Counted from the first letter of the stretch, positions 12,918 through 63,434 are shown. The stretch: 64,000 bases of DNA from a virus (IMGVR_UViG_3300025707_000003:96001-160000), one strand, 5' to 3'. Numbers and translations are program-made. The notes: generated from the letters alone by a model not told the origin.

Positions 12918-12949
12918 CCCCTTACATTATGATATAAATAAGGGGTTAC
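12918..12949 (-). promoter_or_regulatory. Class A (putative early) motif with a CCCCTTA-N14-TAAGGGG dyad
   Basis: Minus strand reads gtaaccccttatttatatcataatgtaagggg. Confidence 0.7.
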
Positions 12950-13001
12950 GATTCTAACTTTCCTTTACTTTGCAGGTGTTTATGGTTTTTGTGCGTGTAG
13001 C

Positions 13002-13018
13002 GTAACCCCTTGTTTATA
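13002..13018 (+). promoter_or_regulatory. Class A motif
   Basis: gtaaccccttgtttata upstream of the CNNM gene, divergent from the 12933 copy. Confidence 0.6.
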
Positions 13019-13067
13019 CCCTTACATGAGGATCGAACCTCGCCACCAACTCTTAATGGAGAACCAC

Positions 13068-13997
13068 ATGGTCAGCACACTATCTGCTTTTTTCATCACT
13101 ATCATCGCCTCAGCTATCCACAGTGCGTGGGAAATGGCTGTCGCTTCCTTGTCTAAGGCTGAGGTTAAGTCAGCCTGTAAAAACAAGGTCTTCGGATCTT
13201 GTGCGTTGAGCAAGGTGATGAATGATAAAGAGTCTTTTATTAGCACCAATACCATCTGTAATAACATCGCCAACATCATGGGTAGTGGTGTTGTCGGTAC
13301 GAACGCAGGTATGTGGCTTGGTAGCGAGTATGTTGGTTTGGTGATGGGTATCCTCACTTTCACTATCATCATCTGCTCAGAGATCATCCCTAAAGCGTAT
13401 GGTACGAATAACCCTCTCTTTGTGGGTCGTGTCTTCGCTCCTATGATGGTTTTACTGTCATGGGTACTCACACCTATCAACTGGGTCATAGGAAAGCTCA
13501 CAGCTCGTTTTAAGGGTGCAGAGCCTTCTGCTATCGTAGAGAAGATCTACGAGGGTACTTATAACCTTTCACTCACGACTGTTGAGCAGGTTGGTACTCC
13601 ACGAGTCAACATGACCACTGTCCGAGCAGATGAGCGACTAGAGGACATCAAGCCCTCTCTCTTTGAGAGTCAGCACTCACGACTTGTCGTACTTGGTAAG
13701 AGCCGAGATGATGTAAAGGGTATCATGCTTCTCAAAGACGCTTTCCAAGCTCTTGCTAAGGACGAGAACCCTACTGTCGAAGAGCTTACAAGACCTGTCC
13801 TCAAGGTTGAATCGAACATCTCTTGTGAAGAGATGTTCAAACAGTTCACCACGAACAAGTCTCACCTCGCTGTCATGGTAGATGACTTTGGAGGAACAGA
13901 TGGTGTCGTGAGTCTTGAGGACATCATGGAACTGATGACCCAAACCGAGATCACCGATGAAACAGACGAGCAAGTCTGTATGCGTGAGGTAGGGTAA
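13068..13997 (+). CDS. CNNM/CorC/HlyC-family membrane protein (DUF21 plus CBS pair)
   Basis: SAWEMAVASL, NNIANIMG, CSEIIPKAYG, TPRVNM, HSRLVVLG and VDDFGGTDGVVSLEDIME. The start is placed at the ATG following GGAG. Confidence 0.88.
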   Translation: MVSTLSAFFITIIASAIHSAWEMAVASLSKAEVKSACKNKVFGSCALSKVMNDKESFISTNTICNNIANIMGSGVVGTNAGMWLGSEYVGLVMGILTFTIIICSEIIPKAYGTNNPLFVGRVFAPMMVLLSWVLTPINWVIGKLTARFKGAEPSAIVEKIYEGTYNLSLTTVEQVGTPRVNMTTVRADERLEDIKPSLFESQHSRLVVLGKSRDDVKGIMLLKDAFQALAKDENPTVEELTRPVLKVESNISCEEMFKQFTTNKSHLAVMVDDFGGTDGVVSLEDIMELMTQTEITDETDEQVCMREVG

Positions 13998-14006
13998 TCA
14001 TATAAT
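13998..14006 (+). promoter_or_regulatory. Class C motif ATCATATAA
   Basis: Recurs at 44614, 46838 (AACATATAA), 47862, 52453 and 60573 (minus), always upstream of a gene. Confidence 0.4.
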
Positions 14007-14091
14007 GAAGTTTATAATCACAATTTTCCTGTGGGTGCTAATCACACTCCCTTTAACCCTCTTACTTTACTCAATCTTTTAAGGAGACATT

Positions 14092-14379
14092 ATGTCATTC
14101 CCTCTAACAAAAGAATCTATCAATAAAATCTCTGACTATGGAACAGCGAAAGCGTTCATATCGGCTTTTTCTACACCGAGCCTAATCACAACACCTTCTG
14201 GAATGAGTAACTTTGACTTTATCAAAGTATGGTTTACTTTCTTAGAAAATGCCCCAAAGTCTACTGGTTGGAGAGACATGAAAGAACTGTTTATGAAAAT
14301 ATACAACCACAAAGAACTGTTTATGGAAATATACAACCACAATGCAGATGCTATCGAGGAGGCACTTGGAAATGAATAA
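14092..14379 (+). CDS. Hypothetical protein
   Basis: AAGGAG RBS; contains a 30-bp tandem duplication. Confidence 0.65.
   Translation: MSFPLTKESINKISDYGTAKAFISAFSTPSLITTPSGMSNFDFIKVWFTFLENAPKSTGWRDMKELFMKIYNHKELFMEIYNHNADAIEEALGNE
14281..14340 (+). repeat. 30-bp tandem duplication with 1 mismatch
   Basis: aaagaactgtttatg(a/g)aaatatacaaccac occurs twice. Confidence 0.9.
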
Positions 14380-14824
14380 GCAACAAATCGCAGAGAGCCT
14401 ATGTCGTATCAAGGCACTAAAAGACGCTCTCGATGCAGAGATCAAATCCTTGCGTCAGCATATCCCTGTAGGAGAAAAGATCGAGACACCTCTTGGTGAT
14501 GTTCACCATGTGGATTCATCTCGCACATCATATGATGAAGCAGGTCTACTAGCCGAGCTTAACCGACAGGGCATCGACCCCACAACTATCGGTGAGGTTG
14601 TGGTCAAGGTAGACCGTAAAAAGTTCGCCAAAGCTATCACCAAAGGAGCAATCCCCTCAAACCTTATTGAGGACTACTCTGAGACTAAGCCTGTACCACA
14701 GCTTAAAATCAAGCCTAAGCTAGACGCTCAAAACTTAGGGCGGGATACTCAGAGCCGTGTTGCTTCTTTAACAGGAGGGGCGAACTATGACGAGAGGGTT
14801 CTCGAAAAAAACCTTCAAAGATAG
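14372..14824 (+). CDS. Hypothetical protein
   Basis: ATG after GAGGAGG, overlapping the previous stop. Confidence 0.7.
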   Translation: MNKQQIAESLCRIKALKDALDAEIKSLRQHIPVGEKIETPLGDVHHVDSSRTSYDEAGLLAELNRQGIDPTTIGEVVVKVDRKKFAKAITKGAIPSNLIEDYSETKPVPQLKIKPKLDAQNLGRDTQSRVASLTGGANYDERVLEKNLQR

Positions 14825-14922
14825 TCCTTATAGGGCTGTAGGGTGTGTTGTGGATTAAAAAATTGGGTAAAAGCTCAACCTGTGTTTACAATTTAAATTA
14901 ATGACCTTGAAAGGAGCTTGGT

Positions 14923-15619: not shown

Positions 15620-15636
15620 GTAACCCCTAATTTATA
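15620..15636 (+). promoter_or_regulatory. Class A motif
   Basis: gtaacccctaatttata upstream of the 15688 gene. Confidence 0.55.
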
Positions 15637-15687: not shown

Positions 15688-16116
15688 ATGAATGACTTTC
15701 GGGTAGGGCATCAACTGTTAGTAGGAAAAACAACGCTGAAGAGCTTGGAGGTCATAGATGTGATCGAGAGGAATAAAGTCTTCAGCGTTGTTGACGAAGA
15801 AAAAAATATAAAAAATGTTCATGTTGATGACGCTTCTCTTTTCTCTTACTTTTCCAACAATATAACTCAACCTGAGACCCAAGACACAGAGGGTCGATTT
15901 ACAGTCGAAGGTGATAAGGACAATAGTCATTATCCAAAATGGGATTGTGGTCAAAAGGTTGAGTTTGAGGTCGAGTTAAAAGGTGCTTCTCTAAAAGTTT
16001 TGGGGTACATAACTCGCAACTTTTGGTCTGGCTACTACCTTTTATCAGAGGTAGGTGTTTCAGTACCTAACAGGTATTGGAAAGTCGCCCACTCTAAGTG
16101 TACTAAAATTGGTTAA
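15688..16116 (+). CDS. Hypothetical protein
   Basis: 142-aa ORF with a GGGGGA RBS. Confidence 0.7.
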   Translation: MNDFRVGHQLLVGKTTLKSLEVIDVIERNKVFSVVDEEKNIKNVHVDDASLFSYFSNNITQPETQDTEGRFTVEGDKDNSHYPKWDCGQKVEFEVELKGASLKVLGYITRNFWSGYYLLSEVGVSVPNRYWKVAHSKCTKIG

Positions 16117-16651: not shown

Positions 16652-16947
16652 TTTTTGATTACCTCAATACCTAACATCTTCCCATTTAGCTGAGACTGCA
16701 TCTTCTGTAAAAATTGAATGTCCTCATCACTAAGCGTATCCTTTTGTCTCGAAAGATCGCTATGTGAGACTACACAAACACCCTCTCTAATACAGAGGTC
16801 TGTTGCTCTAGTGAGTACTTCAATCCAGACAAGAGTAGTCGTAAACTCCCCGCAATCTTTTTCTATGATGAAGTGAATATGAGGACAGCCTAATCGGGAT
16901 TTTATCTCTAAAGCCCTATTGAGATCAGACACTAGATGCAAGATCAT
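16648..16947 (-). CDS. Hypothetical protein
   Basis: ATG overlaps the amidase TAA (TAATG). Confidence 0.6.
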   Translation of the reverse strand: MILHLVSDLNRALEIKSRLGCPHIHFIIEKDCGEFTTTLVWIEVLTRATDLCIREGVCVVSHSDLSRQKDTLSDEDIQFLQKMQSQLNGKMLGIEVIKK

Positions 16948-17894
16948 TACCCAAATAAAGTATCCCACCAACACGCACAATCCCACTTCTTTTGTGTGAT
17001 GTGGTGGTGTCCGATTACGCCAGTAAAGTTTCTTGTAAGATAACCCTTATCCACCACCCCATGATAGAAATCTCCATCATAAGACTGACCTTCAGACCCA
17101 CAAGGGAACTGATATGGAATGTCCAAAGCAGTACAGAGACTCTTAACTGCTTCCCGAACAGCTATAGCTACATTCGGATCTAAGGAGATAATACGCTTAT
17201 CTCCACGACCAGTGTCATTGGTTGTCTCTTGTACATCATACCCTTTCTTTACATAGTGGTTCTTCCACTTCAAAGAAGGTTGCTGACAAATGTCGATACC
17301 CACCGAGTAAGAGTTAGCCCATCCTCCATGCCAACTCTTGTGGTTGAGGTCGAGATATTGATAAATGGTAGGATTGCCTTCTGGACTCAACCCAATCCCT
17401 GCGTGTGAACTGACTTCTCTATCGGGGCTAGAGAAGATCCTGTGGCAATGATGAGGGTCAAGACCCCCCCAATGCACAACTATGATCGTTGGTTTTCTAC
17501 CCTTACGAGATGAAAAATGCCCAAATCTGTGGAGATCGAGTCCACCTCTTTGGTCGAAGTTGACGATTTCTACTGTAGGGTCGATGTCCACACCAACCCT
17601 ACGATCATTTACCGTCCAATATGCTTGACCGTCTTCAATACGATCAAACTTTTTTAACATCGCAGACCATGTTCCTCGACCCATTTTCCCATCGACTCCA
17701 GAGCCTGCTCCAAAGTTGTCTTCTTGGAACGCTTCGACAGCAAGTGCGAAATCTGTAGAATCGACAGACTTAGCTAAGTTAGGGTATGCTTCGATTGCCG
17801 ACTGAGGGATATTATCCAACCAACCGACAGAGACACTTGCTTTCTTATTATATGAGCAAGCATTGGATCTAGTTTGTATAACTATGGAGGACAT
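16947..17894 (-). CDS. N-acetylmuramoyl-L-alanine amidase with a PG-binding domain (endolysin)
   Basis: AVEAFQ..DGKMGRGTW (PG_binding_1-like), IVVHW, SSHAGIG, SWHGG..NSYSVGIDI and IGHHHITQKKWDC. Confidence 0.85.
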   Translation of the reverse strand: MSSIVIQTRSNACSYNKKASVSVGWLDNIPQSAIEAYPNLAKSVDSTDFALAVEAFQEDNFGAGSGVDGKMGRGTWSAMLKKFDRIEDGQAYWTVNDRRVGVDIDPTVEIVNFDQRGGLDLHRFGHFSSRKGRKPTIIVVHWGGLDPHHCHRIFSSPDREVSSHAGIGLSPEGNPTIYQYLDLNHKSWHGGWANSYSVGIDICQQPSLKWKNHYVKKGYDVQETTNDTGRGDKRIISLDPNVAIAVREAVKSLCTALDIPYQFPCGSEGQSYDGDFYHGVVDKGYLTRNFTGVIGHHHITQKKWDCACWWDTLFG

Positions 17895-17923
17895 TGTTCA
17901 CCTTTCTATTGTGAGTTTCTTTC

Positions 17924-19303
17924 ATGTCGTTATCTTTATTTATACCTACAATAAATGAACTATCATCACTTTTAGTTTTAAGCCATGCGAGTAATGGGGG
18001 TACTGTTCTACTCTCTCGCAACAATAAGATATGGAATAATCTATCTGCAAAGTCGATTATCAATGCTTACCACCCAGAACTACACGCTAGAATCATTCAA
18101 ACTTCATTGTTAGAGTTATGTAAGTCGGGAGATGGGTGTAAACTCGGTGCGTTTATCACTATTTCTCTACTAAGATCTTTTCATCGCCATTACGGTGAAG
18201 TCCACCCTAAGATTACGGATCAAGTTAAGAAGGCAGTTAATCTCGCTGTAAATGCCGTACCTAGATACGAATCCAACCAAGATATATTAAAAGAAATCGG
18301 ACTCCAGAGTGAGCTTGATGGGGAATCCATAGATAAGATCTCCGAAGCTATTTATCTCGCAGGCTCTTTATCTTCTCATGTCTCTCTTGAGAAATGGGAA
18401 GGGAATGGTTGTGAAGTTGTTGAAACCGAATCTTTCCATGCTTCACTAAGAGTACACCATGATAATGAAGCATATCTCAATGGCCCAATGTTCGCTTTAT
18501 TTAGTCGGCCAGTTTTTGAAGTGGATCACATACTAAATGCGATGGAACTCATGGGGTCATTTGAAGGTAGACCACTAGTCATTATAGCCCCTATGGTAGG
18601 TGGTAAAGCCCTACAAGCAATCAAGATGAACAACCATAAAGGAACACTTGAAGTATATGCGTGTGATGCACCGAGAGTGATTTGGGGCAAGGGTTGGTTA
18701 GATGACTTTGCTTCGTTTACTGGAGCTACTGTTGTTGATCAGAAGTATGAAAAGTTTGTACCTGAGTTCTATGGTTCAGCTATTAACTCCGTCCTTAACT
18801 ACACAGAAATGATTACAGACCCTTATGATGACCATGTAGATAAAACAGCAGACCGAGTAGATGAACTCCTTAGAGAAGCTGAAAGTTCACCTCACCCTCA
18901 CACACAAGATCAGTTGAGAAAAAGAGCCAACGCCCTTAATGGTACGCTCGTTCGCTTGAGAGTTGGTGGTCCTACCGAAGCTGAGGCAAGATGGCGTAGA
19001 GGATTAGCCGAAAAAGCCTTGATTTCTATGATGGATGCTAAAGTAAATGGGTATGTCAAAGGAGCAATCCCTACCCTCTATAACATAACCACAGGAAACC
19101 CATATCTTGATCGAGCATTGAAAGCACCTTTTAAAGTCGTATGTCATAACTTAGGTAAGGCTGAGAATGACTCTAGCGTATGGGATATAAAAGAACTCTA
19201 TGAGCCTTTCCCTGTTGGTAGATTGATTGAGTTATTAGACAAATCCATATCAATAGCCACAACTTTAGGTTCTGTGGGTTATATAGTCAGGAGCAAAAAA
19301 TGA
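17924..19303 (+). CDS. Divergent GroEL/Cpn60-like chaperonin
   Basis: SGDG at the GDGTTT position, GRPLVIIAP, LDDFASFTGATVV, QLRKRANALNG..LRVGGPTEAEAR. Confidence 0.75.
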   Translation: MSLSLFIPTINELSSLLVLSHASNGGTVLLSRNNKIWNNLSAKSIINAYHPELHARIIQTSLLELCKSGDGCKLGAFITISLLRSFHRHYGEVHPKITDQVKKAVNLAVNAVPRYESNQDILKEIGLQSELDGESIDKISEAIYLAGSLSSHVSLEKWEGNGCEVVETESFHASLRVHHDNEAYLNGPMFALFSRPVFEVDHILNAMELMGSFEGRPLVIIAPMVGGKALQAIKMNNHKGTLEVYACDAPRVIWGKGWLDDFASFTGATVVDQKYEKFVPEFYGSAINSVLNYTEMITDPYDDHVDKTADRVDELLREAESSPHPHTQDQLRKRANALNGTLVRLRVGGPTEAEARWRRGLAEKALISMMDAKVNGYVKGAIPTLYNITTGNPYLDRALKAPFKVVCHNLGKAENDSSVWDIKELYEPFPVGRLIELLDKSISIATTLGSVGYIVRSKK

Positions 19304-19509
19304 AATGGTATTACTTTTCCCGAAGTGAGGATACTTTGACTTTAGTTCCAAGAAATAAAATGGGTGTAAGACCCAATGACGCACAAAAAGGAGATGAGTA
19401 CACTCCTTGGTATAAGAAGTCTGAACACCATGATGATTCTCATGTTCATGTAAAAGGGATAAATGAACAGGATGCTGAAAGAAGAGCAAAAGAGAGGATC
19501 AAAAAATGA
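19300..19509 (+). CDS. Hypothetical protein
   Basis: ATGA-coupled ORF. Confidence 0.65.
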   Translation: MKWYYFSRSEDTLTLVPRNKMGVRPNDAQKGDEYTPWYKKSEHHDDSHVHVKGINEQDAERRAKERIKK

Positions 19510-20069
19510 TTGAAATAAAGATAGGTGATTGCACCCAAAGACTTAAAGACCTAGAAGATAACTCTGTTGATGCTGTTATCTGCGATCCTCCTTATGGACT
19601 AAAGTTTATGTCAAAAGGTTGGGATGACATAGGAAACGGAAGTCAGCAAAGGGAATGGCATAGAAAGTGGCTTACAGAAGTTCATCGAATCTTAAAACCA
19701 AATGGAGTCCTTAAGGCTTTCAGTGGTTCAAGGACTTTCCATCACTTAATAGCGATGATGGAAGAAATAGGTTTCTCAGATTTGAGTGTTGAAGCCTGGA
19801 GTTACGGAAGTGGATTCCCGAAATCTCATAATGTGAGTAAATCCATAGATAAACACTTAGGTGTAGTGCGAGAGGAGGTGGGTGTTGTTAAAGGAATGGG
19901 CAAACAGAACCCTGAGTGGAATGGTACTGCACAGGGTAGATCTGAAAACTATTTCAAGCCAGAGTATATTCTGACAGCCCCTACATCCCAACTTGCAAAG
20001 CAGTATGAGGGATGGGGTACGGCTCTTAAACCCGCATGGGAAAGTATATGTATTGGGGTTAAAAAATGA
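19506..20069 (+). CDS. DNA N4/N6-methyltransferase, part 1 (catalytic DPPY motif)
   Basis: IGDC..DNSVDAVICDPPYGLKFM..WD, WSYGSGFPKSHN and GWGTALKPAWE. Confidence 0.85.
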   Translation: MIEIKIGDCTQRLKDLEDNSVDAVICDPPYGLKFMSKGWDDIGNGSQQREWHRKWLTEVHRILKPNGVLKAFSGSRTFHHLIAMMEEIGFSDLSVEAWSYGSGFPKSHNVSKSIDKHLGVVREEVGVVKGMGKQNPEWNGTAQGRSENYFKPEYILTAPTSQLAKQYEGWGTALKPAWESICIGVKK

Positions 20070-20722
20070 TCATCACTATCTTGAGGAAACCCCTTGAGGG
20101 TACAGTAGCTGAGAATACTCTGAAACATGGTTGTGGGGCTTTGAATATTGATGCCACTCGCATTGGGAGTTTAGTCCAAGACACCTCTAAAAATGGACGC
20201 TCCCATGAAAGACAAAAAAGCACAGTCTTTCAATCTAACTTTAAAGAAGAATTTGAAGGGAAGACCACCACAGGAAGATGGCCAGCTAACTTTATTCTGA
20301 CCCATAAAGAAGATTGTGAGTTAAGAGGAACTAAAAAAGTTAAAGGGCATAAAGGCTATCCAAATGGTCCAGGTGGTATTTGGTCTAAAGAGTACCAAGA
20401 CAAACACCAAAAAGATCGTAGCCTTACAGATGTGAAAACTGTCAAAGACAATGAAGCGTGGGTGGGTCATGCAGATAAAGATGGGAAAGAAACTATATCT
20501 GATTGGGCTTGTGTAGAGGGTTGCCCTGTTCAAGAGTTAGACGAACTTTCTCTTGCTAATGGTATGCACAGTGCAGGGTACTCAAAGTCACACAACACTA
20601 AACGAATTGAGGGAATGGTGAACTTTGGTGGTGGTGATCTTTTGACCAATGGGGGTCGTTATGGAGATAGTGGAGGAGCTTCTAGGTTTTTTAAACAATT
20701 TAAGAAAGAGAATGACCAATGA
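20066..20722 (+). CDS. DNA methyltransferase, part 2 (middle region)
   Basis: RKPLEGTVAENTLKHGCGALNIDATRI, GRWPAN and GGASRFF, all normally internal to one-piece phage MTases. Confidence 0.8.
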   Translation: MIITILRKPLEGTVAENTLKHGCGALNIDATRIGSLVQDTSKNGRSHERQKSTVFQSNFKEEFEGKTTTGRWPANFILTHKEDCELRGTKKVKGHKGYPNGPGGIWSKEYQDKHQKDRSLTDVKTVKDNEAWVGHADKDGKETISDWACVEGCPVQELDELSLANGMHSAGYSKSHNTKRIEGMVNFGGGDLLTNGGRYGDSGGASRFFKQFKKENDQ

Positions 20723-21435
20723 AAGACATGATTGAATACTTTAAGACAATGATCACACCTCCAGTAGAAGATGCCTGTATTATTGTTGCACACCCACAAG
20801 AAATAGATTTCACAAAATATCTAAAAGTGGAGAAACAAGGAGCAGGTTCAGGGGCAATTATTGATATGAAAGAACCTCTTGCTCATGGAGTGATCTTACT
20901 GTCAGAACCTACGGATGAACAAAGTAAAGAAATATTTAAAATCTTAAAACCTGGTGGTCATGTGATCCTCATCCCCGAAGACATTGGATATAAGGGAGTT
21001 ATTTCCCTTGAAGATACAGGGTTTGAAGTAAGAGATGCGATCTTTGTAGGAGATGGGGAGAGCGATTTCTATTACTGCTCGAAAGCAAGTAGGTCTGAAA
21101 GAGAAGAGGGGCTACCTCCAAAAGACGAAGGTAGATCCAACACACACCCTACTGTCAAGCCTATAGAAATCATGGGGTGGTGTGCTAGAGATATAAAACC
21201 TAACTCTAAAGTAGTAGACCCATTCTTAGGGTCTGGAACTACTGGGATTGCGATGTCTCGTTTAGGGCATGACTTTGTAGGGATTGAATTACAGAAAGAA
21301 TATGCAAAGATCTGTGAGGCTCGGATTAGACATTGGATGCCTATTGGGACTGAGATAGAGTCTGAAGCTCAAGTAGGTAAAGCAGAACCTAAAAAGGGTG
21401 AGCAAGTATCTATATTTGACATCTTTGATTCATAG
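20719..21435 (+). CDS. DNA methyltransferase, part 3 (SAM-binding motif)
   Basis: YCSKASRSERE, HPTVKP, VVDPFLGSGTTGIA and FVGIEL. Confidence 0.85.
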   Translation: MKDMIEYFKTMITPPVEDACIIVAHPQEIDFTKYLKVEKQGAGSGAIIDMKEPLAHGVILLSEPTDEQSKEIFKILKPGGHVILIPEDIGYKGVISLEDTGFEVRDAIFVGDGESDFYYCSKASRSEREEGLPPKDEGRSNTHPTVKPIEIMGWCARDIKPNSKVVDPFLGSGTTGIAMSRLGHDFVGIELQKEYAKICEARIRHWMPIGTEIESEAQVGKAEPKKGEQVSIFDIFDS

Positions 21436-55274: not shown

Positions 55275-55292
55275 GTTCCATAGGAGACTTAA

Positions 55293-55820
55293 CTACCCCC
55301 CAATCCTCTTTATTGCACCTAAAACCCTATGATGCTCTTCATCACTTAACTTAAATAGATTGTCAAGCACATCACTTGAAAGACCCTCAAGCCCATAAAG
55401 AGCAATGACCTCCTCTCCTGTCATTTGCGGATTAGAAAAGCACTCTTGCTCGACTCTAACCTTAGACCATCCAAACATCTCCATACACACCTCTTTATGT
55501 GGTCTAAACACCTTAACTTTAGGTTCTACTTTAGGTTCACGCTTAAATGCTGAACCCCAACCATTAAGCTCATGTACCAAGTCGGTGTAGTTCACCTTAG
55601 CCCTCTTCAAAACATGATGATAAAAAGAAATGCTCCCCCAATCACTCATTTCAAAGAACTTCCCGTCATAAGCTCCGCTACCTACCCTCTCTTTTAACCA
55701 ACCATGTATGTGGTTAAAGGTAATATCTGGATATAGGTCTATAAAGTTAGGGTGGATCGTATACACCTTTGCATAAGGCATTATCTGATTTGCATCGTGT
55801 GAGTATCTTATCAAACTCAT
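55293..55820 (-). CDS. Hypothetical protein
   Basis: 175-aa ORF between the 31-bp repeats. Confidence 0.7.
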   Translation of the reverse strand: MSLIRYSHDANQIMPYAKVYTIHPNFIDLYPDITFNHIHGWLKERVGSGAYDGKFFEMSDWGSISFYHHVLKRAKVNYTDLVHELNGWGSAFKREPKVEPKVKVFRPHKEVCMEMFGWSKVRVEQECFSNPQMTGEEVIALYGLEGLSSDVLDNLFKLSDEEHHRVLGAIKRIGG

Positions 55821-55853
55821 ATCGGTTCTCCTTTCAAGAGACTTATATTTAAG

Positions 55854-55886
55854 TCTCCTTTCAAGAGATTATAAATAAGGGGTTAC
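55854..55886 (+). repeat. 31-bp direct repeat, copy 2 (class A promoter plus RBS, minus orientation)
   Basis: Also a partial third copy of tctcctttcaagaga at 55827-55841. Confidence 0.9.
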
Positions 55887-55989
55887 AAACTCGAACCCAA
55901 AAATCACAAACCCAAATAATATACAGAATCACTTATCCAACATCGCTTTTTCAAAAACGCTCATATATAAGACCCCCCCCTCTCTGGAC

Positions 55990-56262
55990 TTAACCTTTAT
56001 ACATAATCTTGTAATCATGCTCCCCCATACGCTTGTATGACTCAATCTGCTCCGCATTCGCTTGCTCTATCTCATCCGAATCTCCCCAAAGAGTTAGCTC
56101 TTTGCCCCAATATCGCCCTAGATTCAAGTATTCAGAAGAAGTCATTTTTAATAAGTCTTCCACAGCTTCCTGTTTGGAGACTGGTAGTTCCAAGCCATGT
56201 CTCTTTATGTATTCTTCACAAGTCATTTGTCTTCCCTGTATTGGTAAAGGTGGTTGAAACAT
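55990..56262 (-). CDS. Hypothetical protein
   Basis: 90-aa ORF downstream of the class A motif at 56400-16. Confidence 0.55.
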   Translation of the reverse strand: MFQPPLPIQGRQMTCEEYIKRHGLELPVSKQEAVEDLLKMTSSEYLNLGRYWGKELTLWGDSDEIEQANAEQIESYKRMGEHDYKIMYKG

Positions 56263-56302
56263 GGTTATAGATCAAGGGATGTCAAATTGTATGCGTTTTC
56301 AA

Positions 56303-56335
56303 TATGGGTTTTCGGGACTCCCCCAAAAACCCATA
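56303..56335. other. Intergenic stem-loop
   Basis: tatgggtttt pairs with aaaacccata (10 bp), with an inner ggg/ccc pair. Confidence 0.5.
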
Positions 56336-56415
56336 GAGTCTTTGATGGGGTTCTGAGAGAATGTTGATTAACCCTGTCTTTGAGGGACGAGAAGACCTTT
56401 ATATTCAAGGGGTTA

Positions 56416-57042
56416 CTACTTCGCATCCGTATCTTCCTTCGGCTCGGTTTTCCCTTTTAGCTCGCTTATTTCTTTTAGGAGCTGATCACGCTCTGCTTTC
56501 AAGTGACTATTATTTTGGTAGTATGCGTTGAGGTGGTTGATCATGGTTTCTTTCGGTACGCCCTTCTTCTTGAGATGGAGGTCTTGAAGGGTAACACTCT
56601 GCCATGTTCCGTTTGGGTTCTGACATTCAGCGAAACAAACTACAGAGACTACCTCTCCTTGCACCACTTCGCCAGTATAGGATCTGTAATAGTATATGTC
56701 TCCTGCTCGTGGTAGGTCAGAGCTTGAGAGCTTGGGGTCGGTGTGTACCTCTTTTGGATGAGGGGTCTTAGTAGGAATGTTTGGTTCGGAAATAGGCTCT
56801 TCGACTGGTTCGGAATTATCTGGTTCCGAAGTCTCACTCCAAACGACAACATCCCCAAAAAGATCTAAGGGGTCTGCTTCGGCTGGGTTTCTAATCATGT
56901 CACCGTCAAGAATAAAGTCTCCGTTCTTAATGCATTGGTCGAGGACCATCTTAAAACGAGCATCGCCCATTCTTTTAACGCCCAACTCCTGCTTCGCTAC
57001 CTCTTTAGCCTTCTTGATCGTCAGCCCTATGAGTGCCTTCAT
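56416..57042 (-). CDS. Hypothetical protein
   Basis: 208-aa ORF whose stop abuts a class A motif. Confidence 0.7.
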   Translation of the reverse strand: MKALIGLTIKKAKEVAKQELGVKRMGDARFKMVLDQCIKNGDFILDGDMIRNPAEADPLDLFGDVVVWSETSEPDNSEPVEEPISEPNIPTKTPHPKEVHTDPKLSSSDLPRAGDIYYYRSYTGEVVQGEVVSVVCFAECQNPNGTWQSVTLQDLHLKKKGVPKETMINHLNAYYQNNSHLKAERDQLLKEISELKGKTEPKEDTDAK

Positions 57043-57356
57043 AGCTCGCCCTCCATACCATCGCCATAGTCGTCATCATCTAGGGCATAGTATTCATCCT
57101 CATCATCGGCACTGTCAAAGTCGAGCATCTCCTCGACCATCTTCTTTAAGATCTGTGCTTTGATCGTTTGGTGGTGGGTTACCTCGACTGAGGAGATGCC
57201 ATAGTGGTGTGCCATGTCCTTGACCTCCTCATAGTTCTCAAGTTCCTCTATGAATGACTTAGCCCATATCTTCGCATCGCTCTCACTTAATCTCTCACTG
57301 TGAGCTTCGGAGATAAGGTCTTGTAGGTGTCCACAGTTATTAGCGTATGTCGTCAT
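57039..57356 (-). CDS. Hypothetical acidic protein
   Basis: ATG 4 nt after the previous stop; the start is reassigned from 57476. Confidence 0.6.
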   Translation of the reverse strand: MTTYANNCGHLQDLISEAHSERLSESDAKIWAKSFIEELENYEEVKDMAHHYGISSVEVTHHQTIKAQILKKMVEEMLDFDSADDEDEYYALDDDDYGDGMEGEL

Positions 57357-57360
57357 ATTA

Positions 57361-57735
57361 CTAGTCTCTACTTTCTTGCCATTCATCATAGCTCGCCATC
57401 GTTTGTATATCCTCATTAAACTGCCTTCGCAAGAGGGAGGTCTTAGTTCGGATAGTTTGGTGATCTCCCCATCCATTTATTTGATTTGGGTCATGATCCT
57501 CACCCCAACCTTGAGGGTTCTCTGATCGTAGGTTGATCCAAGCTCCAAGAGCTGACTCATATTGAGCCACCTCAGTGCTGAACTTACTGACCTCTGCCAC
57601 CCACTCGCTAGGGGTAGGAGGAACATCAAGATCAGCAAAGGCTCGCTCGATCTCTCTCCACTCCCCACGAAAAGGTTGGGGTAGGCTGTTTCGGATGGTG
57701 GCGTATTGTGCTCGTTGTTTTTCTATGGTCGTCAT
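57361..57735 (-). CDS. Hypothetical protein
   Basis: AAGGAGG RBS; class A motif at 57759-75. Confidence 0.72.
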   Translation of the reverse strand: MTTIEKQRAQYATIRNSLPQPFRGEWREIERAFADLDVPPTPSEWVAEVSKFSTEVAQYESALGAWINLRSENPQGWGEDHDPNQINGWGDHQTIRTKTSLLRRQFNEDIQTMASYDEWQESRD

Positions 57736-57774
57736 GTTGACCTCCTTCTACACCTTTATATAAATAAGGGGTTA

Positions 57775-58416
57775 CTACTTCGTATTGCCCTTATGGTGAA
57801 CGATGCAGTCATAGTGTACCTCCACCATAGACCCTACACGCTTGATCTTCTTCACCCCTCGCTCTTCTAGCAACTCGACTCTATAGTAGTTGCGACCCCA
57901 TGCTCCCCCTGCCCCGATGACCTTAGCTCGTGTGCGTTGTCCACCACCACCTGGCGTACCACTGAACACGATCTCATCACCGATCTTGATCTCACTCTTG
58001 TTGGGTCGGTTATCAGAGACCCAGTCCAACCGAACCAACTTGAGGAACCAGTTGCCAAGATGAGCATCGTTATGAGACTGGGGCTTATCGTGTCCTCTCC
58101 ATGTCTGATAAGGGTAGGTTATAGAGTTTGTACAGTTGCCATATAGACTCACTGTAGACGCTCCATCCTTAGCCCATGTCAAGGTGAGGAAGAAGTCGCC
58201 AAACCCCTCCTTTCGGAGTACGAGATCCACCTCACCCGACAACTCAATGGCAGGTTTGGGGATCACCTTAAACCCTATCTCCTCTGCTAGATCAGTGAAG
58301 AGCTTGATGTGTCGGTCATACCACGACTGCATAGACCCTTTGGTCTTGTATGCAGTCTTGTGATGAGGTGTCGGGATCATCTTGCGAACCCCATTGATCT
58401 TCTGAGTTAAGGTCAT
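57775..58416 (-). CDS. Hypothetical protein with a C-terminal SH3/KOW-like segment
   Basis: IKIGDEIVF..RAKVIG..YYRVEL. Confidence 0.7.
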   Translation of the reverse strand: MTLTQKINGVRKMIPTPHHKTAYKTKGSMQSWYDRHIKLFTDLAEEIGFKVIPKPAIELSGEVDLVLRKEGFGDFFLTLTWAKDGASTVSLYGNCTNSITYPYQTWRGHDKPQSHNDAHLGNWFLKLVRLDWVSDNRPNKSEIKIGDEIVFSGTPGGGGQRTRAKVIGAGGAWGRNYYRVELLEERGVKKIKRVGSMVEVHYDCIVHHKGNTK

Positions 58417-58438
58417 TAGCAGTCTCCTTTTATTACAG

Positions 58439-58491
58439 TACCCTATAAATAAGGGGTTACCATTAGGCTGTAACCCCTTATTTATAGGGTA
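58439..58491. promoter_or_regulatory. Back-to-back class A motifs forming a perfect 22-bp inverted repeat
   Basis: taccctataaataaggggttac, 9-nt spacer, gtaaccccttatttatagggta. Confidence 0.85.
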
Positions 58492-58528
58492 ACATCAATC
58501 ACTCTCACTCCCCCAAACGGAGAAAAAA

Positions 58529-59122
58529 ATGACTGCGACACAAACCATATTCTTTATATCAGCACTCGTGTTCGTTGGTACCAGCATCAACGCAGGTAAA
58601 AAGGCTTTTGAGGGCAGGGCTGTTTACCACAGCCAATGCTCAATCAACCCTAATCCTGTGCAGTACCAGGGTCACACTGGGACAGTGAGTGTCCGTAGGT
58701 GGTGGTATGTGGATACTGTCACATTTGCTCAGATCAAGGCTAATAAGGCACAGCATAAAATTTGTGAGAGCGTGAAGGTTCTCATGTCGAGTGAGGCTGA
58801 GGTTGCTGAAGCTGAGAGGCTTCAAGATGTCGCCAATAACTGGATCATCTTCTTCTTCGCTTGGCTTGGTCTGGGTGTCTTGATTGAGCTTGTGAGGGTT
58901 CAGATTGGCAACAGGCGGGAGCGTCTTGACCGACTCAACGCTGAAGCAGAGCGAGATCTTGAAGCATCAGCGAGAACTGAGTTCTGGGTCTCTTATGCGA
59001 CAGCTAAGGAAACTGAGCGACAGAGATCTAAGACAGCTAATGAAGAACGAGCCAGACGAAAGGCTGATAGGGGAGCGACCCTTGAAGCTAAAAGGATTGC
59101 AAACCTAGAGCGTAAGGGATAA
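58529..59122 (+). CDS. Hypothetical two-TM protein with a coiled-coil tail
   Basis: Hydrophobic N-terminus and central helix. Confidence 0.7.
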   Translation: MTATQTIFFISALVFVGTSINAGKKAFEGRAVYHSQCSINPNPVQYQGHTGTVSVRRWWYVDTVTFAQIKANKAQHKICESVKVLMSSEAEVAEAERLQDVANNWIIFFFAWLGLGVLIELVRVQIGNRRERLDRLNAEAERDLEASARTEFWVSYATAKETERQRSKTANEERARRKADRGATLEAKRIANLERKG

Positions 59123-59126
59123 CGAA

Positions 59127-59714
59127 ATGACACTAAGAGAACAAATCCAAACACGAGCCGAGATTCTAGGTCAGTTAGGTGGTCGAGGCACCCTTATGAC
59201 CCAAGAAGAGTATGTACTCGATAAGGGTGCTGAGATGGCTTCTAGTGAGACTTTAACAGAGGAGCAGTACTCGTACCTCAAAATGATCACAGGAATGATT
59301 GAGTGCCTCCCTAAGCAGTGTTTCCATAATGCTCAGATGATGACCCTTGCCGACAGCTACCGAGTCCACCAGAGGGTCAAGTATCACGAGGGCTATGTGT
59401 GGACTGGTTTTATGCCTATCCTCCATGCGTGGATCACCCTTGACGATAAGATTGTTGATGTGACTCTTAGCACTGACCCAGAGTCTACTCAACGCTTCCT
59501 TGCAGGAGATTCGCCACAGGGAGACTTGATGGACAGGGTGCTTGGAGTGATCCCAGATGAGTGGGAATATCTAGGTGTGCCTATGGAGAGTGAGTATGTA
59601 GTTTCCACGATGATGAAGAATCAGGAGTCCCGTTCACTCATCGACAATTGGCAGGACGGATGGCCTCTACTTTCTAAAGTGAGTTCCTCTTTAGATACGA
59701 ATACGAGGTCGTAA
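59127..59714 (+). CDS. Hypothetical protein (KQCFHNA..YHEGY..ILHAW family)
   Basis: Transglutaminase-like C..H pattern. Confidence 0.65.
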   Translation: MTLREQIQTRAEILGQLGGRGTLMTQEEYVLDKGAEMASSETLTEEQYSYLKMITGMIECLPKQCFHNAQMMTLADSYRVHQRVKYHEGYVWTGFMPILHAWITLDDKIVDVTLSTDPESTQRFLAGDSPQGDLMDRVLGVIPDEWEYLGVPMESEYVVSTMMKNQESRSLIDNWQDGWPLLSKVSSSLDTNTRS

Positions 59715-59727
59715 CCCCTTATATAAG
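59711..59727 (+). promoter_or_regulatory. Class A motif overlapping the upstream stop codon
   Basis: gtaaccccttatataag. Confidence 0.6.
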
Positions 59728-59764
59728 AGTAAATATCAATCACCCACTTCTCAACGGAGACAAC

Positions 59765-60199
59765 ATGGTAAACCTACTCTCAACAATCATCATCCTCGAA
59801 GCTTGCAAAGGCTTTGAGACTTATGACGAAACCTTTGATCGTATGATCCCGACAGCAGGTGCAGAGATCAAATCTTTGAGCTTCGATATACACCCCTCTT
59901 ACTTTGAAGATGAGGACTATAACGCCATCGCACCACTCGCACTGAAGGTGGCTACATACGATGTCATCTGTGATCCGAAGGATCGAGAGGCAATCGTGGA
60001 AGCAATCGCCAAAGGCTTTGAGGGTGTGTCGGATCATGTGAAGCTTTTCAGCATCAAGATGACCTCAACCACCAAGACTTTTTGGAACGCTCGTAAGGGT
60101 AAAGCCACCACTCATAAGAGCCACCATCAACCTCAGCTTGTAATCACTTATAGCGAGGACATGAGAATCAACCTCAAGGATCGTGAAACGAACTTCTAA
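59765..60199 (+). CDS. Hypothetical protein
   Basis: CGGAG RBS. Confidence 0.7.
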   Translation: MVNLLSTIIILEACKGFETYDETFDRMIPTAGAEIKSLSFDIHPSYFEDEDYNAIAPLALKVATYDVICDPKDREAIVEAIAKGFEGVSDHVKLFSIKMTSTTKTFWNARKGKATTHKSHHQPQLVITYSEDMRINLKDRETNF

Positions 60200-60252
60200 G
60201 ATGTCGTAGCGTTCAGTGAAGGGTCTAGGCTAGGGTTGCTCCTTTAATGCTC

Positions 60253-60534
60253 TTAGAGGGCAATCTGAGCGTCCTCTTTGACCATTACTAAACGATAGGC
60301 GAACTTGAGCCAATCCTCTGCATTGTTCCCCCCTTGCCACATGAGGAGTTGTACCTGCTTTTCATGTTCTCCCCAGTCAACTAAGGTCTTAGCATTAAAG
60401 GTCATCCATCGATTTCTCAAGTCTCGGTAATGACCTCTTGCTAAGTCTTCCCACATTGGAAGCCAGCTTGAGCGTGTCTCCCTTGACTTACGAAGCAACT
60501 GGATAAGGTCGGTGGTAATCATTTCTCTAGTCAT
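60253..60534 (-). CDS. Hypothetical protein
   Basis: 93-aa ORF; class C motif at 60573-81. Confidence 0.65.
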   Translation of the reverse strand: MTREMITTDLIQLLRKSRETRSSWLPMWEDLARGHYRDLRNRWMTFNAKTLVDWGEHEKQVQLLMWQGGNNAEDWLKFAYRLVMVKEDAQIAL

Positions 60535-60599
60535 TTTAGTGTCCTTGAATCATATTTAAGAGTACCTATTTATTATATGATTTGGGCTACTAAGGACTC

Positions 60600-61142
60600 T
60601 CAATAACTGATGTCTTTATGAGCTGGACTACTCTTATTGATCTTCTTACGACAGATGGGGCCGATAGCTTGCTTTAAGCTCGAAGGGTTAGTGAGGGGGA
60701 GAGCACATCTCGCACACTTGGCTTCACACATGATCTGTAGATTATCGGGCATCTCGAAGTCTTGGTCAGTAGATACTCCTAAGAGCCAGACGAGGGTTTC
60801 GTAGCCGATGTCGAGTCGGGGCTGATTGAGGTTCAGTCCGCATTGGATTCGGAGCGTACCTCTCTCATCGACTGTCCCGATGGTCTGATACACAGGGTCA
60901 TACAAGCTGTTAAGTCCATGTAGGTTAAGGCTCACTTCAACAGGTTCATTGACGGTCTGCCCCTTTAGACGAGTCGCCTTGTAGGTGAGGTGATTGTCCT
61001 TACGCTCGTTGCCGAAGGTGAACACCCAGGACTTGGTTCTCTTGGACGGAAGGGCGACACCGTTATGGTCATGTGTCGCCCCGAAGAAAGGGGCTGTAAG
61101 GTGAGCGAGGAACTCACTAGGTTTTATCTCGACTTGCTTCAT
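60600..61142 (-). CDS. DUF6011-like Zn-finger protein, paralog A
   Basis: CARCALPLTNPSS..AIGPIC; the start is reassigned from 61196. Confidence 0.72.
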   Translation of the reverse strand: MKQVEIKPSEFLAHLTAPFFGATHDHNGVALPSKRTKSWVFTFGNERKDNHLTYKATRLKGQTVNEPVEVSLNLHGLNSLYDPVYQTIGTVDERGTLRIQCGLNLNQPRLDIGYETLVWLLGVSTDQDFEMPDNLQIMCEAKCARCALPLTNPSSLKQAIGPICRKKINKSSPAHKDISY

Positions 61143-61714
61143 GGGTTCTCCTTTTCGATTAGTGCTTCGACCTCTATCAGAGCCTTGTCTACCCATGAGG
61201 GGGTCTCAGTCTCGTTGTGGTCTTTCAGAATGGATAGGTTCTGGTGGAGGTTGTAAGGAAGGAAGCTATAGTGATGTAAGGCTTGTTTCCACTCTTTGAC
61301 CTCCAGTGGAGGAGAGAGGTCAAGGTCGTAAGCCTGATCCTCAAGAAGATCTCTTAACTCATCCTCTCGCTCGTCCTCATCCAAGTTTGGATCAAGGGTA
61401 GCCTTAGCCACTTCCTCATCAAACCATGAGCGTTTGACATCCCAAGGGTACACTCCATCCATGAGACAACACTCGCACAGTTCTGGGTCCGCTTCGTAGT
61501 CGTCATATCCGACCTGAAACATACGCCCTATCCGACCTTCTCCGCCACACTCTTGACACTCTACAGCGTCTGCGTAGGATGAGGATTGGAGGCGAGCCTT
61601 AGCTTCTTCGAGTGAAGCCTTAGCTGACTTCAACTTTTTGAGGTCTTGTTGGATCGCCTCAGTGAGTTGCTCGGAGGTGAAGTTTAGGTCTTGAAGTGAG
61701 GGGTAGTAGCTCAT
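61139..61714 (-). CDS. Hypothetical protein with a CxxCxGxG motif
   Basis: CQECGGEGRI..CECC. Confidence 0.68.
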   Translation of the reverse strand: MSYYPSLQDLNFTSEQLTEAIQQDLKKLKSAKASLEEAKARLQSSSYADAVECQECGGEGRIGRMFQVGYDDYEADPELCECCLMDGVYPWDVKRSWFDEEVAKATLDPNLDEDEREDELRDLLEDQAYDLDLSPPLEVKEWKQALHHYSFLPYNLHQNLSILKDHNETETPSWVDKALIEVEALIEKENP

Positions 61715-61777
61715 GTTGGCTTCTCCATTTGGGAGTGATGGGGTGCGTGATTATTCTGCACCCCTCTTACATAGTCT

Positions 61778-61794
61778 TATAGATAAGGGGTTAC
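61778..61794 (-). promoter_or_regulatory. Class A motif
   Basis: Minus strand reads gtaaccccttatctata. Confidence 0.65.
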
Positions 61795-61956
61795 GACTTC
61801 GTACTTAGCTCACTACAATAGCATCACACCACCCTAGATTTCTCGCCCCAGGGTAGTAGGCATCGAAGTCAAAGGCTCTGCCCGAAGATAGACAAAGCCT
61901 CACGATCTCTTAAATGCCCCTCTAAGAGCCTCCCGACCCCCAACCCACCCTAGCCC

Positions 61957-62481
61957 TTAGACCCCTCGACTTACCTTGCTCGATGAAGCCTTCTTGCGAC
62001 ATACTGGCCCCATGCCATCGTCCACACTGTCTGGGTTGGTGAGCTTCTTAGCACACCGACAGCATTTAGAAGCACCCTTGATCTCAAGAGCGTCTGGAAG
62101 CTCCACCCCATTGTTGAGCTTCGTGATAAGCCACACGAGGGTACGATCTGCCACAGTCTTGCGATCAGCATCTACCACGCTCTTAGGGCTTGCCTTGTAG
62201 AACCCTCTTGGGCTGACCGAGCCGATGAAGCCGAAGTCTGAGGAGTTATCCTTGCCGACCATGAGGTCGATGAGGACAGGGCTTTCAACAGTCCACCCAC
62301 GAGGGCGGCGAGCCTTGAAGGTGAGGTGGGTATCACGCTCGTTGTTGTGGAGCGTGAATGTCCACGCCTTGCTTGAGGTTGATGGGAGAGCCTCGCCCGA
62401 CTCGCTGTGGGTGTCCTTGCCACCGAAAGGGGCGAGGAGAGCTGGAAGGAAGTTGTCGGATGTGATGTTTACTGTGTTCAT
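61957..62481 (-). CDS. DUF6011-like Zn-finger protein, paralog B
   Basis: CCRCAKKLTNPDS..GMGPVC; shares WTFT..N.R..HLT.KA with paralog A. Confidence 0.75.
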   Translation of the reverse strand: MNTVNITSDNFLPALLAPFGGKDTHSESGEALPSTSSKAWTFTLHNNERDTHLTFKARRPRGWTVESPVLIDLMVGKDNSSDFGFIGSVSPRGFYKASPKSVVDADRKTVADRTLVWLITKLNNGVELPDALEIKGASKCCRCAKKLTNPDSVDDGMGPVCRKKASSSKVSRGV

Positions 62482-62521
62482 TTTGTTCTCCGTTTGGGAG
62501 TTAGGGTTGGTGAGGATTGCT

Positions 62522-62553
62522 CCCCTTACACTATCCTATATTTAAGGGGTTAC
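62522..62553 (-). promoter_or_regulatory. Class A motif with a CCCCTTA-N14-TAAGGGG dyad
   Basis: Minus strand reads gtaaccccttaaatataggatagtgtaagggg. Confidence 0.7.
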
Positions 62554-62574
62554 AGCATGGACTAATCGTTGCTC

Positions 62575-63390
62575 TTAGATGTAGCTCTTAGCCTCTACTC
62601 CTGTGGATGACTTGACGATCTTCTCAAGATGATCCATCATGCGAGGTGCGATCTCAAGAGCAGACTTACCACTGATACCGTTAGGCAAGTTATCCCCCTG
62701 TACACCTAATCCGATACCGACTAGTTTGATACCTTGGGCTTGGGCTTGGAGTCTCATTGATTCTAAGTAAGCCTTCTCGTAGTCTTCACCATCAGTGAGG
62801 AAAAAGGCGATCTTATGAGTAGCATTAGATTTAGACACCATGTCGATTGCAGTTTCGGCATAGCAGACGATACTTGTCCCACCACTGCAACGCTTATTAC
62901 GAAGCCTATCAGGATTATCTCGTTGCCATTTATCACCAAGACCTTTGATCATGTTAGCTACAGGCTTGTAGCTTGAACTTGCCATAGGGACATCTCTATC
63001 CCCATAGGTGTACATGACTAGGGCAGAGCTTGAGTCAACCCCGATTGATTGACATGAAGTATGGAGTCCATTTATGAGGCTGATACACTCATTCCAATAG
63101 TTTCCACTAGGAGTAGTATTGCTATAGTTCATGCTGTCGCTCCCATCACAGGCGAAACTGAAAGCCGCTCTCACTTGTGGCTTCTGATACATCTTGATGT
63201 GCCGATCTTTATTCACTTGTCCAGTTCTTACGCTTACAAGCGTATTCACTAAAGCTGTGGAGCGAGTGTTGAGTCTCGCACCTATGAAGTTTTGACCAGC
63301 CTTTTGGTTAGCAACCTCTAAGGCTCTGCGAACCTTATTAGTGCCTCGACCAAGAGCCGAGAGGACTTTGGTGTCATATTGGTTTGGCAT
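62575..63390 (-). CDS. VWA-domain protein (CobT-like)
   Basis: MIDAS DGSDS, GGT and FLTDG, LVGIGLG. Confidence 0.8.
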   Translation of the reverse strand: MPNQYDTKVLSALGRGTNKVRRALEVANQKAGQNFIGARLNTRSTALVNTLVSVRTGQVNKDRHIKMYQKPQVRAAFSFACDGSDSMNYSNTTPSGNYWNECISLINGLHTSCQSIGVDSSSALVMYTYGDRDVPMASSSYKPVANMIKGLGDKWQRDNPDRLRNKRCSGGTSIVCYAETAIDMVSKSNATHKIAFFLTDGEDYEKAYLESMRLQAQAQGIKLVGIGLGVQGDNLPNGISGKSALEIAPRMMDHLEKIVKSSTGVEAKSYI

Positions 63391-63417
63391 TGTCTTTCTC
63401 CTTTCGAGAGTTAATAG

Positions 63418-63434
63418 GATAGATAAGGGGTTAC
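63418..63434 (-). promoter_or_regulatory. Class A motif
   Basis: Minus strand reads gtaaccccttatctatc. Confidence 0.62.

Follow-up and report, generated by a model that had tools for sequence, protein, structure and literature searches.

A putative single-block, non-sigma70 promoter joined to a portable leader in a clade of uncultured marine huge phages

The 64,000-nucleotide (nt) stretch of viral DNA IMGVR_UViG_3300025707_000003:96001-160000, referred to here at its full length as the window, encodes a terminase with a LAGLIDADG intein, UvsX-, PhoH-, GroEL- and clamp-like genes, a 2,191-amino-acid (aa) SNF2-like protein, and a NusG-like gene adjoining a sigma-region-4-like gene. Its source is an uncultured huge phage. 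Between positions 12,918 and 63,434, an initial annotation had marked copies of a short repeated sequence as non-sigma70 early promoters that might double as recombination anchors, or as sites for a dimeric regulator. These copies, here called the class A motif, are likely to represent a clade-specific, non-sigma70 promoter made of a single block and fused to a portable leader, in a reading that also includes early expression by host RNA polymerase and incidental recombination between copies.

When a phage collection was searched with the window DNA for near-identical sequence and with its capsid-like protein, no match was found. The nearest deposited phage record was LR745208.1 (485 kb; 51% for the UvsX-like protein), which contains zero motif copies. 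The window was compared with IMG/VR relatives at approximately 80% nucleotide identity, namely G001 (227 kb), G002 (375.7 kb; rated complete, with its sequence circularly permuted with respect to the window) and the fragments G003 to G005. The entire G002 sequence was used, and genes were called on G002 and, by simple calls, on the window. The motif string was not found in any of the papers searched.

When the window was scanned with GTAACCCCTTATTTAT at three or fewer mismatches, 14 sites were found compared to 0.70 expected; the maximum in shuffled sequence was 3, and none of 100 shuffles reached 14 (Table 1). The 14 copies of the initial annotation were thereby recovered, with its minus-strand starts one base off. 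The window copies have the form GTAACCCCTTAT(T/C)TAT and are 16-17 bases long. By the simple gene calls, all 14 are intergenic or overlap the upstream stop codon by 1-4 nt, and all 14 are aimed at a co-oriented downstream start codon, in agreement with the orientation first reported. The gap between the motif end and the ATG was 22-64 nt in 12 copies. For the copy at 15620 it amounts to 52 nt, provided that the ATG at 15688 is used, and for the weakest copy, at 56401, 138-174 nt lie between the motif end and the ATG. Overlap with the previous stop codon, also proposed earlier, was found in 4 of the 10 copies that have a co-directional upstream gene, and 1 of the 10 was located within 10 nt of it. 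Four copies head divergent units. Downstream of the weakest copy (55990-56400, minus strand), approximately 140-175 nt with hairpin-forming G/C runs contain no convincing open reading frame (ORF), and this stretch could be a small RNA or a decayed cassette.

Table 1. Class A motif copies, long leaders and other features of the window (positions counted from its first nucleotide)
Feature	Position	Strand	Remarks
Class A motif, exact	12934-12949	-	Heads operon 12553-12876 (107 aa), 12297-12542 (WGR), 11512-12303 (Sir2); divergent partner of 13002 (+)
Class A motif, 1 mismatch	13002-13017	+	Precedes 13068-13997 (CNNM/CBS membrane protein)
Class A motif, 1 mismatch	15620-15635	+	Precedes 15688-16116 (142 aa, no family)
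Class A motif, exact	22697-22712	+	Its TAA is the stop codon of 22506-22700; predicted to drive 22771-23313 (HD_4 domain)
Class A motif, 2 mismatches, short leader	55261-55276	-	Precedes 54870-55238
Class A motif, exact	55871-55886	-	Precedes 55293-55820; short leader same as that of 55261, repeated twice
Class A motif, weakest, 3 mismatches	56401-56416	-	138-174 nt without ORF, then 55990-56262
Class A motif, exact	57760-57775	-	First G ends the stop codon of 57775-58416; predicted to drive 57361-57735
Class A motif, exact	58445-58460	-	Left half of back-to-back divergent pair; predicted to drive 57775-58416
Class A motif, exact	58470-58485	+	Right half of divergent pair with 58445; predicted to drive 58529-59122
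Class A motif, 2 mismatches	59711-59726	+	Its TAA is the stop codon of 59127-59714; predicted to drive 59765-60199
Class A motif, C variant	61779-61794	-	Precedes 61139-61714
Class A motif, 2 mismatches	62538-62553	-	Precedes 61957-62481 (DUF6011)
Class A motif, C variant, short leader	63419-63434	-	Precedes 62575-63390 (weak VWA match)
Long class A leader	12877-12933	-	TAATGT element, hairpin, CA-rich spacer, ACTC box, GGAG; 45/57 identical to 62482-62537
Long class A leader	62482-62537	-	Same family as 12877-12933
Long class A leader	22713-22770	+	Hairpin GGGGC...CCCC
Long class A leader	61715-61778	-	7-bp hairpin, -14 kcal/mol
NusG-like protein	816-1334	+	Context; no link to the motif shown
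Tandem sigma-region-4-like helix-turn-helix protein, no region 2	1336-1902	+	188 aa; candidate promoter-binding factor
Class B examples	2151-2207, 10794-10945, 26001-26059, 27517-27573, 38998-39098, 39534-39786, 50826-51509
Class D, TCATATAA	44615-44622, 47863-47870, 13998-14005, 52454-52461, 60573-60580 (-)		40-50 nt before UvsX-like and clamp-region genes, and in G002 before tRNA genes

In the relatives G001, G002, G003, G004 and G005, the motif was found 43, 66, 16, 33 and 10 times, respectively, at two or fewer mismatches, compared to 0 for the reversed pattern, and its commonest form was GTAACCCCTTATCTAT. In G002, 63 of 67 copies were intergenic and 61 of these 63 faced a gene start, with mostly 23-67 nt between motif and ATG. 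None was located within the 63 convergent gaps and 25 were in divergent gaps, often as outward-facing back-to-back pairs.

The sequence logo showed one contiguous, asymmetric block of approximately 17 nt, (T)GTAACCCCTTATCTAT(A), with nearly 2 bits per position and no -35 partner. Information dropped to zero directly upstream of the block, indicating that the conservation reflects constraint on the block and not recent duplication of larger segments. Between 52 and 64 kb of the window, sigma70-like sites were not enriched (12 found compared to 17.7 expected) and neither were intrinsic terminators, which leaves the motif as the only recurrent promoter candidate in that region. These findings, together with the placement, the orientation, the divergent pairs and the conservation in the relatives, point to the motif being a promoter. 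They also agree with its earlier description as non-sigma70, since it has no -35/-10 consensus (TTGACA, 16-18 nt, TATAAT). We suggest that (T)GTAACCCCTTAT(C/T)TAT(A) would be the core promoter of one transcription class in a narrow clade of uncultured marine huge phages. Three further promoter-like classes, B to D, were found by reading all upstream regions combined with k-mer enrichment. Class B, TT.aTAGTTTaTTTATa, has 14 copies in the window and 51 in G002; it precedes virion-module genes, the 2,191-aa gene and genes that share an N-terminal tag.

The sequence between the motif and the start codon was numbered with the motif's G counted as 0. Among 81 copies, 65 (approximately 80%) had a leader of at least 36 nt, and the other 16 placed the ribosome site 9-11 nt past the motif. 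Thus approximately four in five copies would join the promoter to a conserved leader, and the remaining fifth appear to run straight into CTCTTGAAAGGAGA. The proposed order of the leader is a T-A-R-T-R-T element at fixed register, a stem-loop, a C/A-rich spacer, an ACTC box and GGAG. The T-A-R-T-R-T element was found in long leaders at exactly index 20-25, in 31 of 81 copies compared to 0-6 at control offsets. All 30 aligned long leaders folded into a hairpin with 4 bp or more, whose start lies 7-15 nt past the motif end (index 22-30); the mean z was -2.3. The stem sequences differed widely, indicating that it is the pairing, not the sequence, that is conserved. The hairpin is followed by the C/A-rich spacer, by ACTC (at least 90% conserved) and then by AAAGGAGA. 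The nearly invariant ACTC box could pair with the GGAG ribosome site 5-6 nt downstream. In the window, 9 of 13 class A genes have CTCC or CTCT 3-13 nt before GGAG, compared to none of 11 in class B and 2 of 28 among the other genes, and the overall figures are 68%, 0% and 7-11%, respectively; the CTCC near the Shine-Dalgarno (SD) sequence described in the initial annotation is thus specific to class A.

When leaders of at least 40 nt were compared, 120 of 1128 pairs shared at least 70% identity compared to 0 after shuffling, and 118 of these 120 pairs precede unrelated proteins, indicating that promoter and leader form a portable module. The near-identity reported between 12877-12925 and 62482-62527 was confirmed, with 45 of 57 positions identical between the leaders 12877-12933 and 62482-62537 and unrelated proteins behind the two. 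Promoter and leader together would form a unit of 40-80 nt placed before unrelated, mostly small, orphan or accessory genes. Judged from sequence, class A appears to be a real clade-specific promoter-leader module. The three reported CCCCTTA-N14-TAAGGGG dyads were located at 12918-12945, 22701-22728 and 62522-62549. The 28-bp dyad was rejected as a general feature, as it is present in 3 of 14 copies in the window and 2 of 67 in G002. Its G-rich arm is the 5' arm of the leader hairpin and pairs downstream; the dyad is incidental, arising where that arm chances to follow TGTAA. With an asymmetric motif, a rare dyad and a G-rich arm that belongs to the leader hairpin, the proposed sites for a dimeric regulator were not supported.

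Class A copies are followed by small genes (median 136-175 aa), most of which have no family match. The exceptions are of accessory types, namely HD_4, CNNM/CBS, DUF6011, VWA-like and an operon with WGR and Sir2. Guanine-cytosine content at third codon positions (GC3) in G002 was 0.57 for class A genes compared to 0.40 for class B and 0.46 for other genes (p about 5e-16), and in the window it was 0.50, 0.38 and 0.39, respectively. The high GC and GC3 of class A genes were seen mainly at 54870-63992. One explanation for the shift could be that these genes are adapted to the tRNA pool of the host, before the phage tRNAs come into play; another, that they stem from a gene pool of their own. Moreover, 31 of 67 G002 copies were within a 33-kb region (330-363 kb), and the class A-rich region was the least conserved and most rearranged part of the comparison between the window and G002. 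The gene content, the GC3 shift and the clustering in a rearranged region, by analogy with T4-type and other large phages, suggest that class A is an early or host-takeover/accessory gene class. The motif singles out approximately 60-70 small, GC-rich genes in each genome that form a distinct set, probably with roles in host takeover or accessory functions, and the motif classes together allow several hundred orphan genes per genome to be assigned to expression classes from sequence alone.

Rearrangements between the window and its relatives were found to end at several class A copies. At 22697, homology of approximately 80% with G002 crosses the motif, stops at its 3' edge and resumes past the stop codon of the payload gene; at this locus the shared TTATTT core is joined in G002 to a class-B-like box, which is followed by a different, tag-bearing gene. 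For the cassette at 61779, the alignment to the G002 orthologue starts 4 nt before the motif, with none further upstream. Compared with G001 and G002, the segment 58470-61794 is inverted, with inverted class A copies at its two ends, and the payloads of 55871 and 56401 are absent from G002. With the module repeated 60-70 times per genome, the copies may serve as incidental homologous recombination sites at which cassettes are swapped, inverted or inserted, and incidental homologous exchange between many short repeats is the simplest view of these events.

Class A would be read by the host multisubunit RNA polymerase, redirected by a specificity factor of the phage or the host. The presence of a NusG-like gene suits the use of a multisubunit, presumably host, polymerase. 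Profile searches of G001 and G002 revealed no T7-type RNA polymerase, no beta or beta' domains, no sigma region 2 and no gp55 family (PF00940, PF00562, PF00623, PF04542 and phrog_234); PF00940, the T7-like RNA polymerase profile, was silent in both genomes in a search in which the controls were also silent. Scans for catalytic motifs by regular expression gave only a Pol A DNA polymerase and unrelated matches, and the single match to R-x3-K-x7-YG was rejected as a T7-like RNA polymerase, the protein being a family A DNA polymerase. A phmmer search with T4 gp55 gave only insignificant matches, the top one a P-loop kinase, and no gp55 homologue was accepted.

The protein encoded at 1336-1902, which had been put forward as a sigma-like candidate, contains two helix-turn-helix (HTH) domains resembling sigma region 4; its structural model has a pLDDT of 82, and the best fold matches were to region 4 of extracytoplasmic function (ECF) sigma factors. 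It is conserved at 44-93% identity in 21 IMG/VR contigs. As a reader of class A it is disfavoured, since its DNA-recognition helices are invariant in relatives at 44-62% identity that have class B and no class A. If this protein reads a promoter, our guess would be class B rather than class A. Together with the NusG-like gene and an 83-aa ORF, its gene forms a small transcription module at 816-2150. In G002, a 218-aa ORF with a double HTH near 147.1-147.7 kb is another candidate factor.

Several points weigh against the reading of class A as an early, host-read, single-block promoter with incidental recombination. The proposal that copies act as recombination anchors held for clean single cases, such as the swap at 22697 and the inversion of 58470-61794, and not for the breakpoints taken together, which were found within 25 nt at 6 of 14 class A copies, 2 of 14 class B copies and 8 of 25 other gaps, an excess that is not significant. 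Predicted SD pairing in the leader was only modestly above shuffled controls and class B leaders showed a similar folding effect, and SD sequestration was dropped as a class A-specific feature. The argument for early timing consists of gene content and composition. No reader protein was found among the proteins searched, the negative result for an RNA polymerase coming from profile searches, by which very divergent enzymes can be missed, and no family was matched by several G002 proteins of 1,700-3,000 aa. Finally, the TAnnnT sequence fixed 4 nt past the motif (index 20) could be a true -10, making the motif an upstream activator box. Such a two-part promoter would place the 16-mer at about -32 to -17 as the box of an activator or sigma substitute, with the TAGTGT-type hexamer as its -10 and a start in the G-run approximately 16 nt past the motif, a layout that matches T4 middle promoters. 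The exact position of TAnnnT agrees with it, as do the T at the -7 equivalent, 83% conserved in long leaders, and a clear two-block promoter found 30 times in the distant relative G007, where the spacer is always 14 nt and a G-run follows. We nevertheless consider it unlikely. The A at the -11 equivalent is only 58% conserved, and the hexamer stands at index 20 in 2 of the 16 copies with the ribosome site 9-11 nt past the motif, where a start at approximately index 32 would remove the SD. Such a start would also cut the leader hairpins that begin at index 22-30. A start 1-7 nt past the block is favoured instead by the same short-leader copies, which do without the hexamer, and by the conserved hairpins, which often use the hexamer GUGU and require that it be transcribed. 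Nine stems include GUGU at index 22-25, which places the 5' end of the RNA at or before index 22. Transcription of class A genes thus probably starts within approximately 6 nt of the 3' end of the motif.

Other explanations of the motif fit these data less well. An operator, bound by an asymmetric tandem-HTH repressor or shut-off factor that switches the gene class on or off and not itself a promoter, would be in keeping with the tandem or multiple HTH proteins that the phage encodes (1336-1902 and 16220-16651), and an asymmetric 16-nt site would suit two tandem HTH domains. We regard it as quite improbable, as there is no other recurrent promoter signal in the divergent gaps or the class A cluster, the motif keeps a fixed short distance from leaders and start codons, and the tandem sigma4-like protein keeps its recognition helices in relatives that have no motif; an operator role alongside promoter function could nonetheless exist. 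That the motif acts in RNA, as a processing signal or as a docking site for a protein or the ribosome in polycistronic transcripts, seems more improbable still. Approximately half of the co-directional copies touch or run into the upstream stop codon, no terminators were found between genes, and the downstream leader resembles a structured RNA, all of which would agree with a signal of this kind. In contrast, the divergent pairs argue against a purely RNA-level signal: 25 copies in G002 and 4 in the window stand at the head of divergent units, in which a same-strand transcript from upstream is not expected, and neither strand has anything upstream of back-to-back pairs such as 58445/58470. An Rfam scan of the window gave no match. 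The least probable of these explanations, in our judgement highly so, is a dedicated recombination site that serves mainly for gene capture, either of the integron type or recognised by a site-specific recombinase or homing enzyme. The swaps and the inversion that end at motif copies, and the joining of the promoter-leader module to unrelated genes, would be expected of it. Against it are the non-significant breakpoint excess, the rarity of the dyad, and an orientation and distance to start codons that are as strict as is typical of an expression signal. No recombinase among the scanned proteins was tied to the cluster, and the 22697 junction lies in a core common to another promoter class, as exchange driven by microhomology predicts.

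A more doubtful version of the promoter reading concerns what recognises the block. A PHROG scan of three giant G002 proteins gave no family, which leaves room for a very divergent phage polymerase. There is a small chance that class A is read by machinery invisible to current profiles, either a divergent and possibly virion-delivered RNA polymerase among the giant family-less proteins, or a new factor giving the host core polymerase a specificity for 17 nt; the ACTC-GGAG leader might then be a class-specific translational switch. If this were so, a widespread marine phage group would provide a new model of phage transcription control. An information-rich promoter with no recognisable polymerase or sigma factor poses a concrete, testable question.

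Among known systems, the class A module works like the promoter early stem-loop (PeSL) cassettes found in T4-type phages (Arbiol et al. 2010, PMC2839356; Comeau et al. 2014, PMC4122927), to which the initial annotation had compared it. PeSLs are defined by a sigma70-type promoter (-35, N17, -10) with a terminator-like stem-loop just upstream (PMC4122927). As in PeSLs, a repeated regulatory module is found directly before small variable ORFs, mostly in plastic regions; relatives differ by indels, replacements and rearrangements with ends at the module, which also includes the SD and the start of the downstream gene. The hyperplastic location and the ORF differences between relatives were also observed here (31 of 67 G002 copies in 330-363 kb; payloads swapped or absent). 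In contrast, the class A promoter is one contiguous non-sigma70 block and not -35/N17/-10, and its stem-loop is downstream, in the leader, with unconserved upstream flanks and many copies overlapping the upstream stop codon. Membership among the PeSLs was not borne out, the promoter not being of the sigma70 type and the stem-loop being located downstream instead of upstream. The reuse of the module before unrelated genes, with swaps that end exactly there, may extend the idea of a mobile regulatory cassette beyond T4-type phages and sigma70 promoters.

A conserved contiguous block with no -35, immediately upstream of the predicted start, is also a property of the single-block phage promoters, which include those of the T7/T3/SP6 type, the T4 late promoter TATAAATA read by gp55, and the phiEco32 promoters read through gp36. 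The class A block ends in CTATA as do T7 and SP6 promoters and contains TAACCC as does the T3 promoter, a likeness which may be chance. When compared with the T7 type, the contiguous block of approximately 17 nt was present, and the start was bounded to index 22 or less by the leader hairpins. The class A motif differs from the T4 late promoter, with TATAAATA found only on the opposite strand of the T variant. A further difference is that the searches of G001 and G002 gave no T7-type polymerase, no sigma region 2 and no member of the gp55 family.

T4 middle promoters combine a MotA box with a sigma70 -10 through sigma appropriation by MotA and AsiA. They resemble class A in having a phage-specific upstream box in place of the -35, a TAnnnT at a fixed distance, here in 38% of copies, and probable use of the host polymerase. 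They differ in the spacing, the hexamer being 4 nt from the box here compared to about 12 nt, and the short-leader copies and hairpins of class A argue against the hexamer as a -10. At the RNA level, 5'-terminal stabilising stem-loops and SD-sequestering hairpins are known in bacterial and phage mRNAs, and T4 RegB and RegA control early mRNAs. Class A leaders resemble these in having a hairpin near the predicted 5' end and an anti-SD-like CTCC 5-6 nt before GGAG in one gene class only; the modest predicted SD pairing sets them apart from SD-sequestering leaders.

With respect to the other promoter-like classes, class B persists in distant relatives, unlike class A. Class C, GGTATAAATAA, is rare, with few copies, and precedes an endolysin-like gene. 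In the window, GGTATAAATAA was found at 9060-9115, 10900-10945 and about 17905-17925 (minus strand), upstream of 9116-9313, 10946-11515 and the endolysin-like gene 16947-17894, respectively. It resembles the T4 late promoter, and a gp55-family sigma factor was not found in the relatives. Class D, TCATATAA, is present at 35 sites near gene starts in G002, before UvsX-like, clamp-region and tRNA genes, and has no -35 partner. Classes A and B end in a common T-rich TAT(A) core, and 7 G002 copies are hybrids joining the class A 5' half to TCATATAA; the common core and the hybrids make the block look modular, with a class-specific 5' part and an AT-rich 3' part.

In G007 (290 kb), which has no class A, the two-block promoter was found at 30 sites (for example 38305, minus strand; 39235, plus strand; 52025, minus strand). 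It consists of TTATCCCAAG, the fixed 14-nt spacer and TTATTAG with a G-run, and precedes similar CA-rich leaders, indicating that the early-type promoter varies between subclades and the leader style is kept. A 9-mer, TTATCC[AG][AT]T, was found 311 times in the same genome, with a triple tandem repeat near 40185-40227; it was rejected as a promoter, being almost entirely within genes and in no fixed relation to gene starts.

An exact-match scan of bacterial genomes gave scattered single matches and one 'bacterium' metagenome-assembled genome in GTDB (JAGGVT01, isolate AUK107), in which the 18-mer was present on approximately 25 contigs. JAGGVT01 is probably a mis-binned relative of the source phage and thus gives no clue to the host. 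In the large terminase gene (35428-38553), the intein carries a LAGLIDADG endonuclease domain, and the G002 gene aligns as two blocks flanking extra sequence. Three neighbouring DNA methyltransferase-like ORFs at 19506-21435 resemble split or multiple enzymes.

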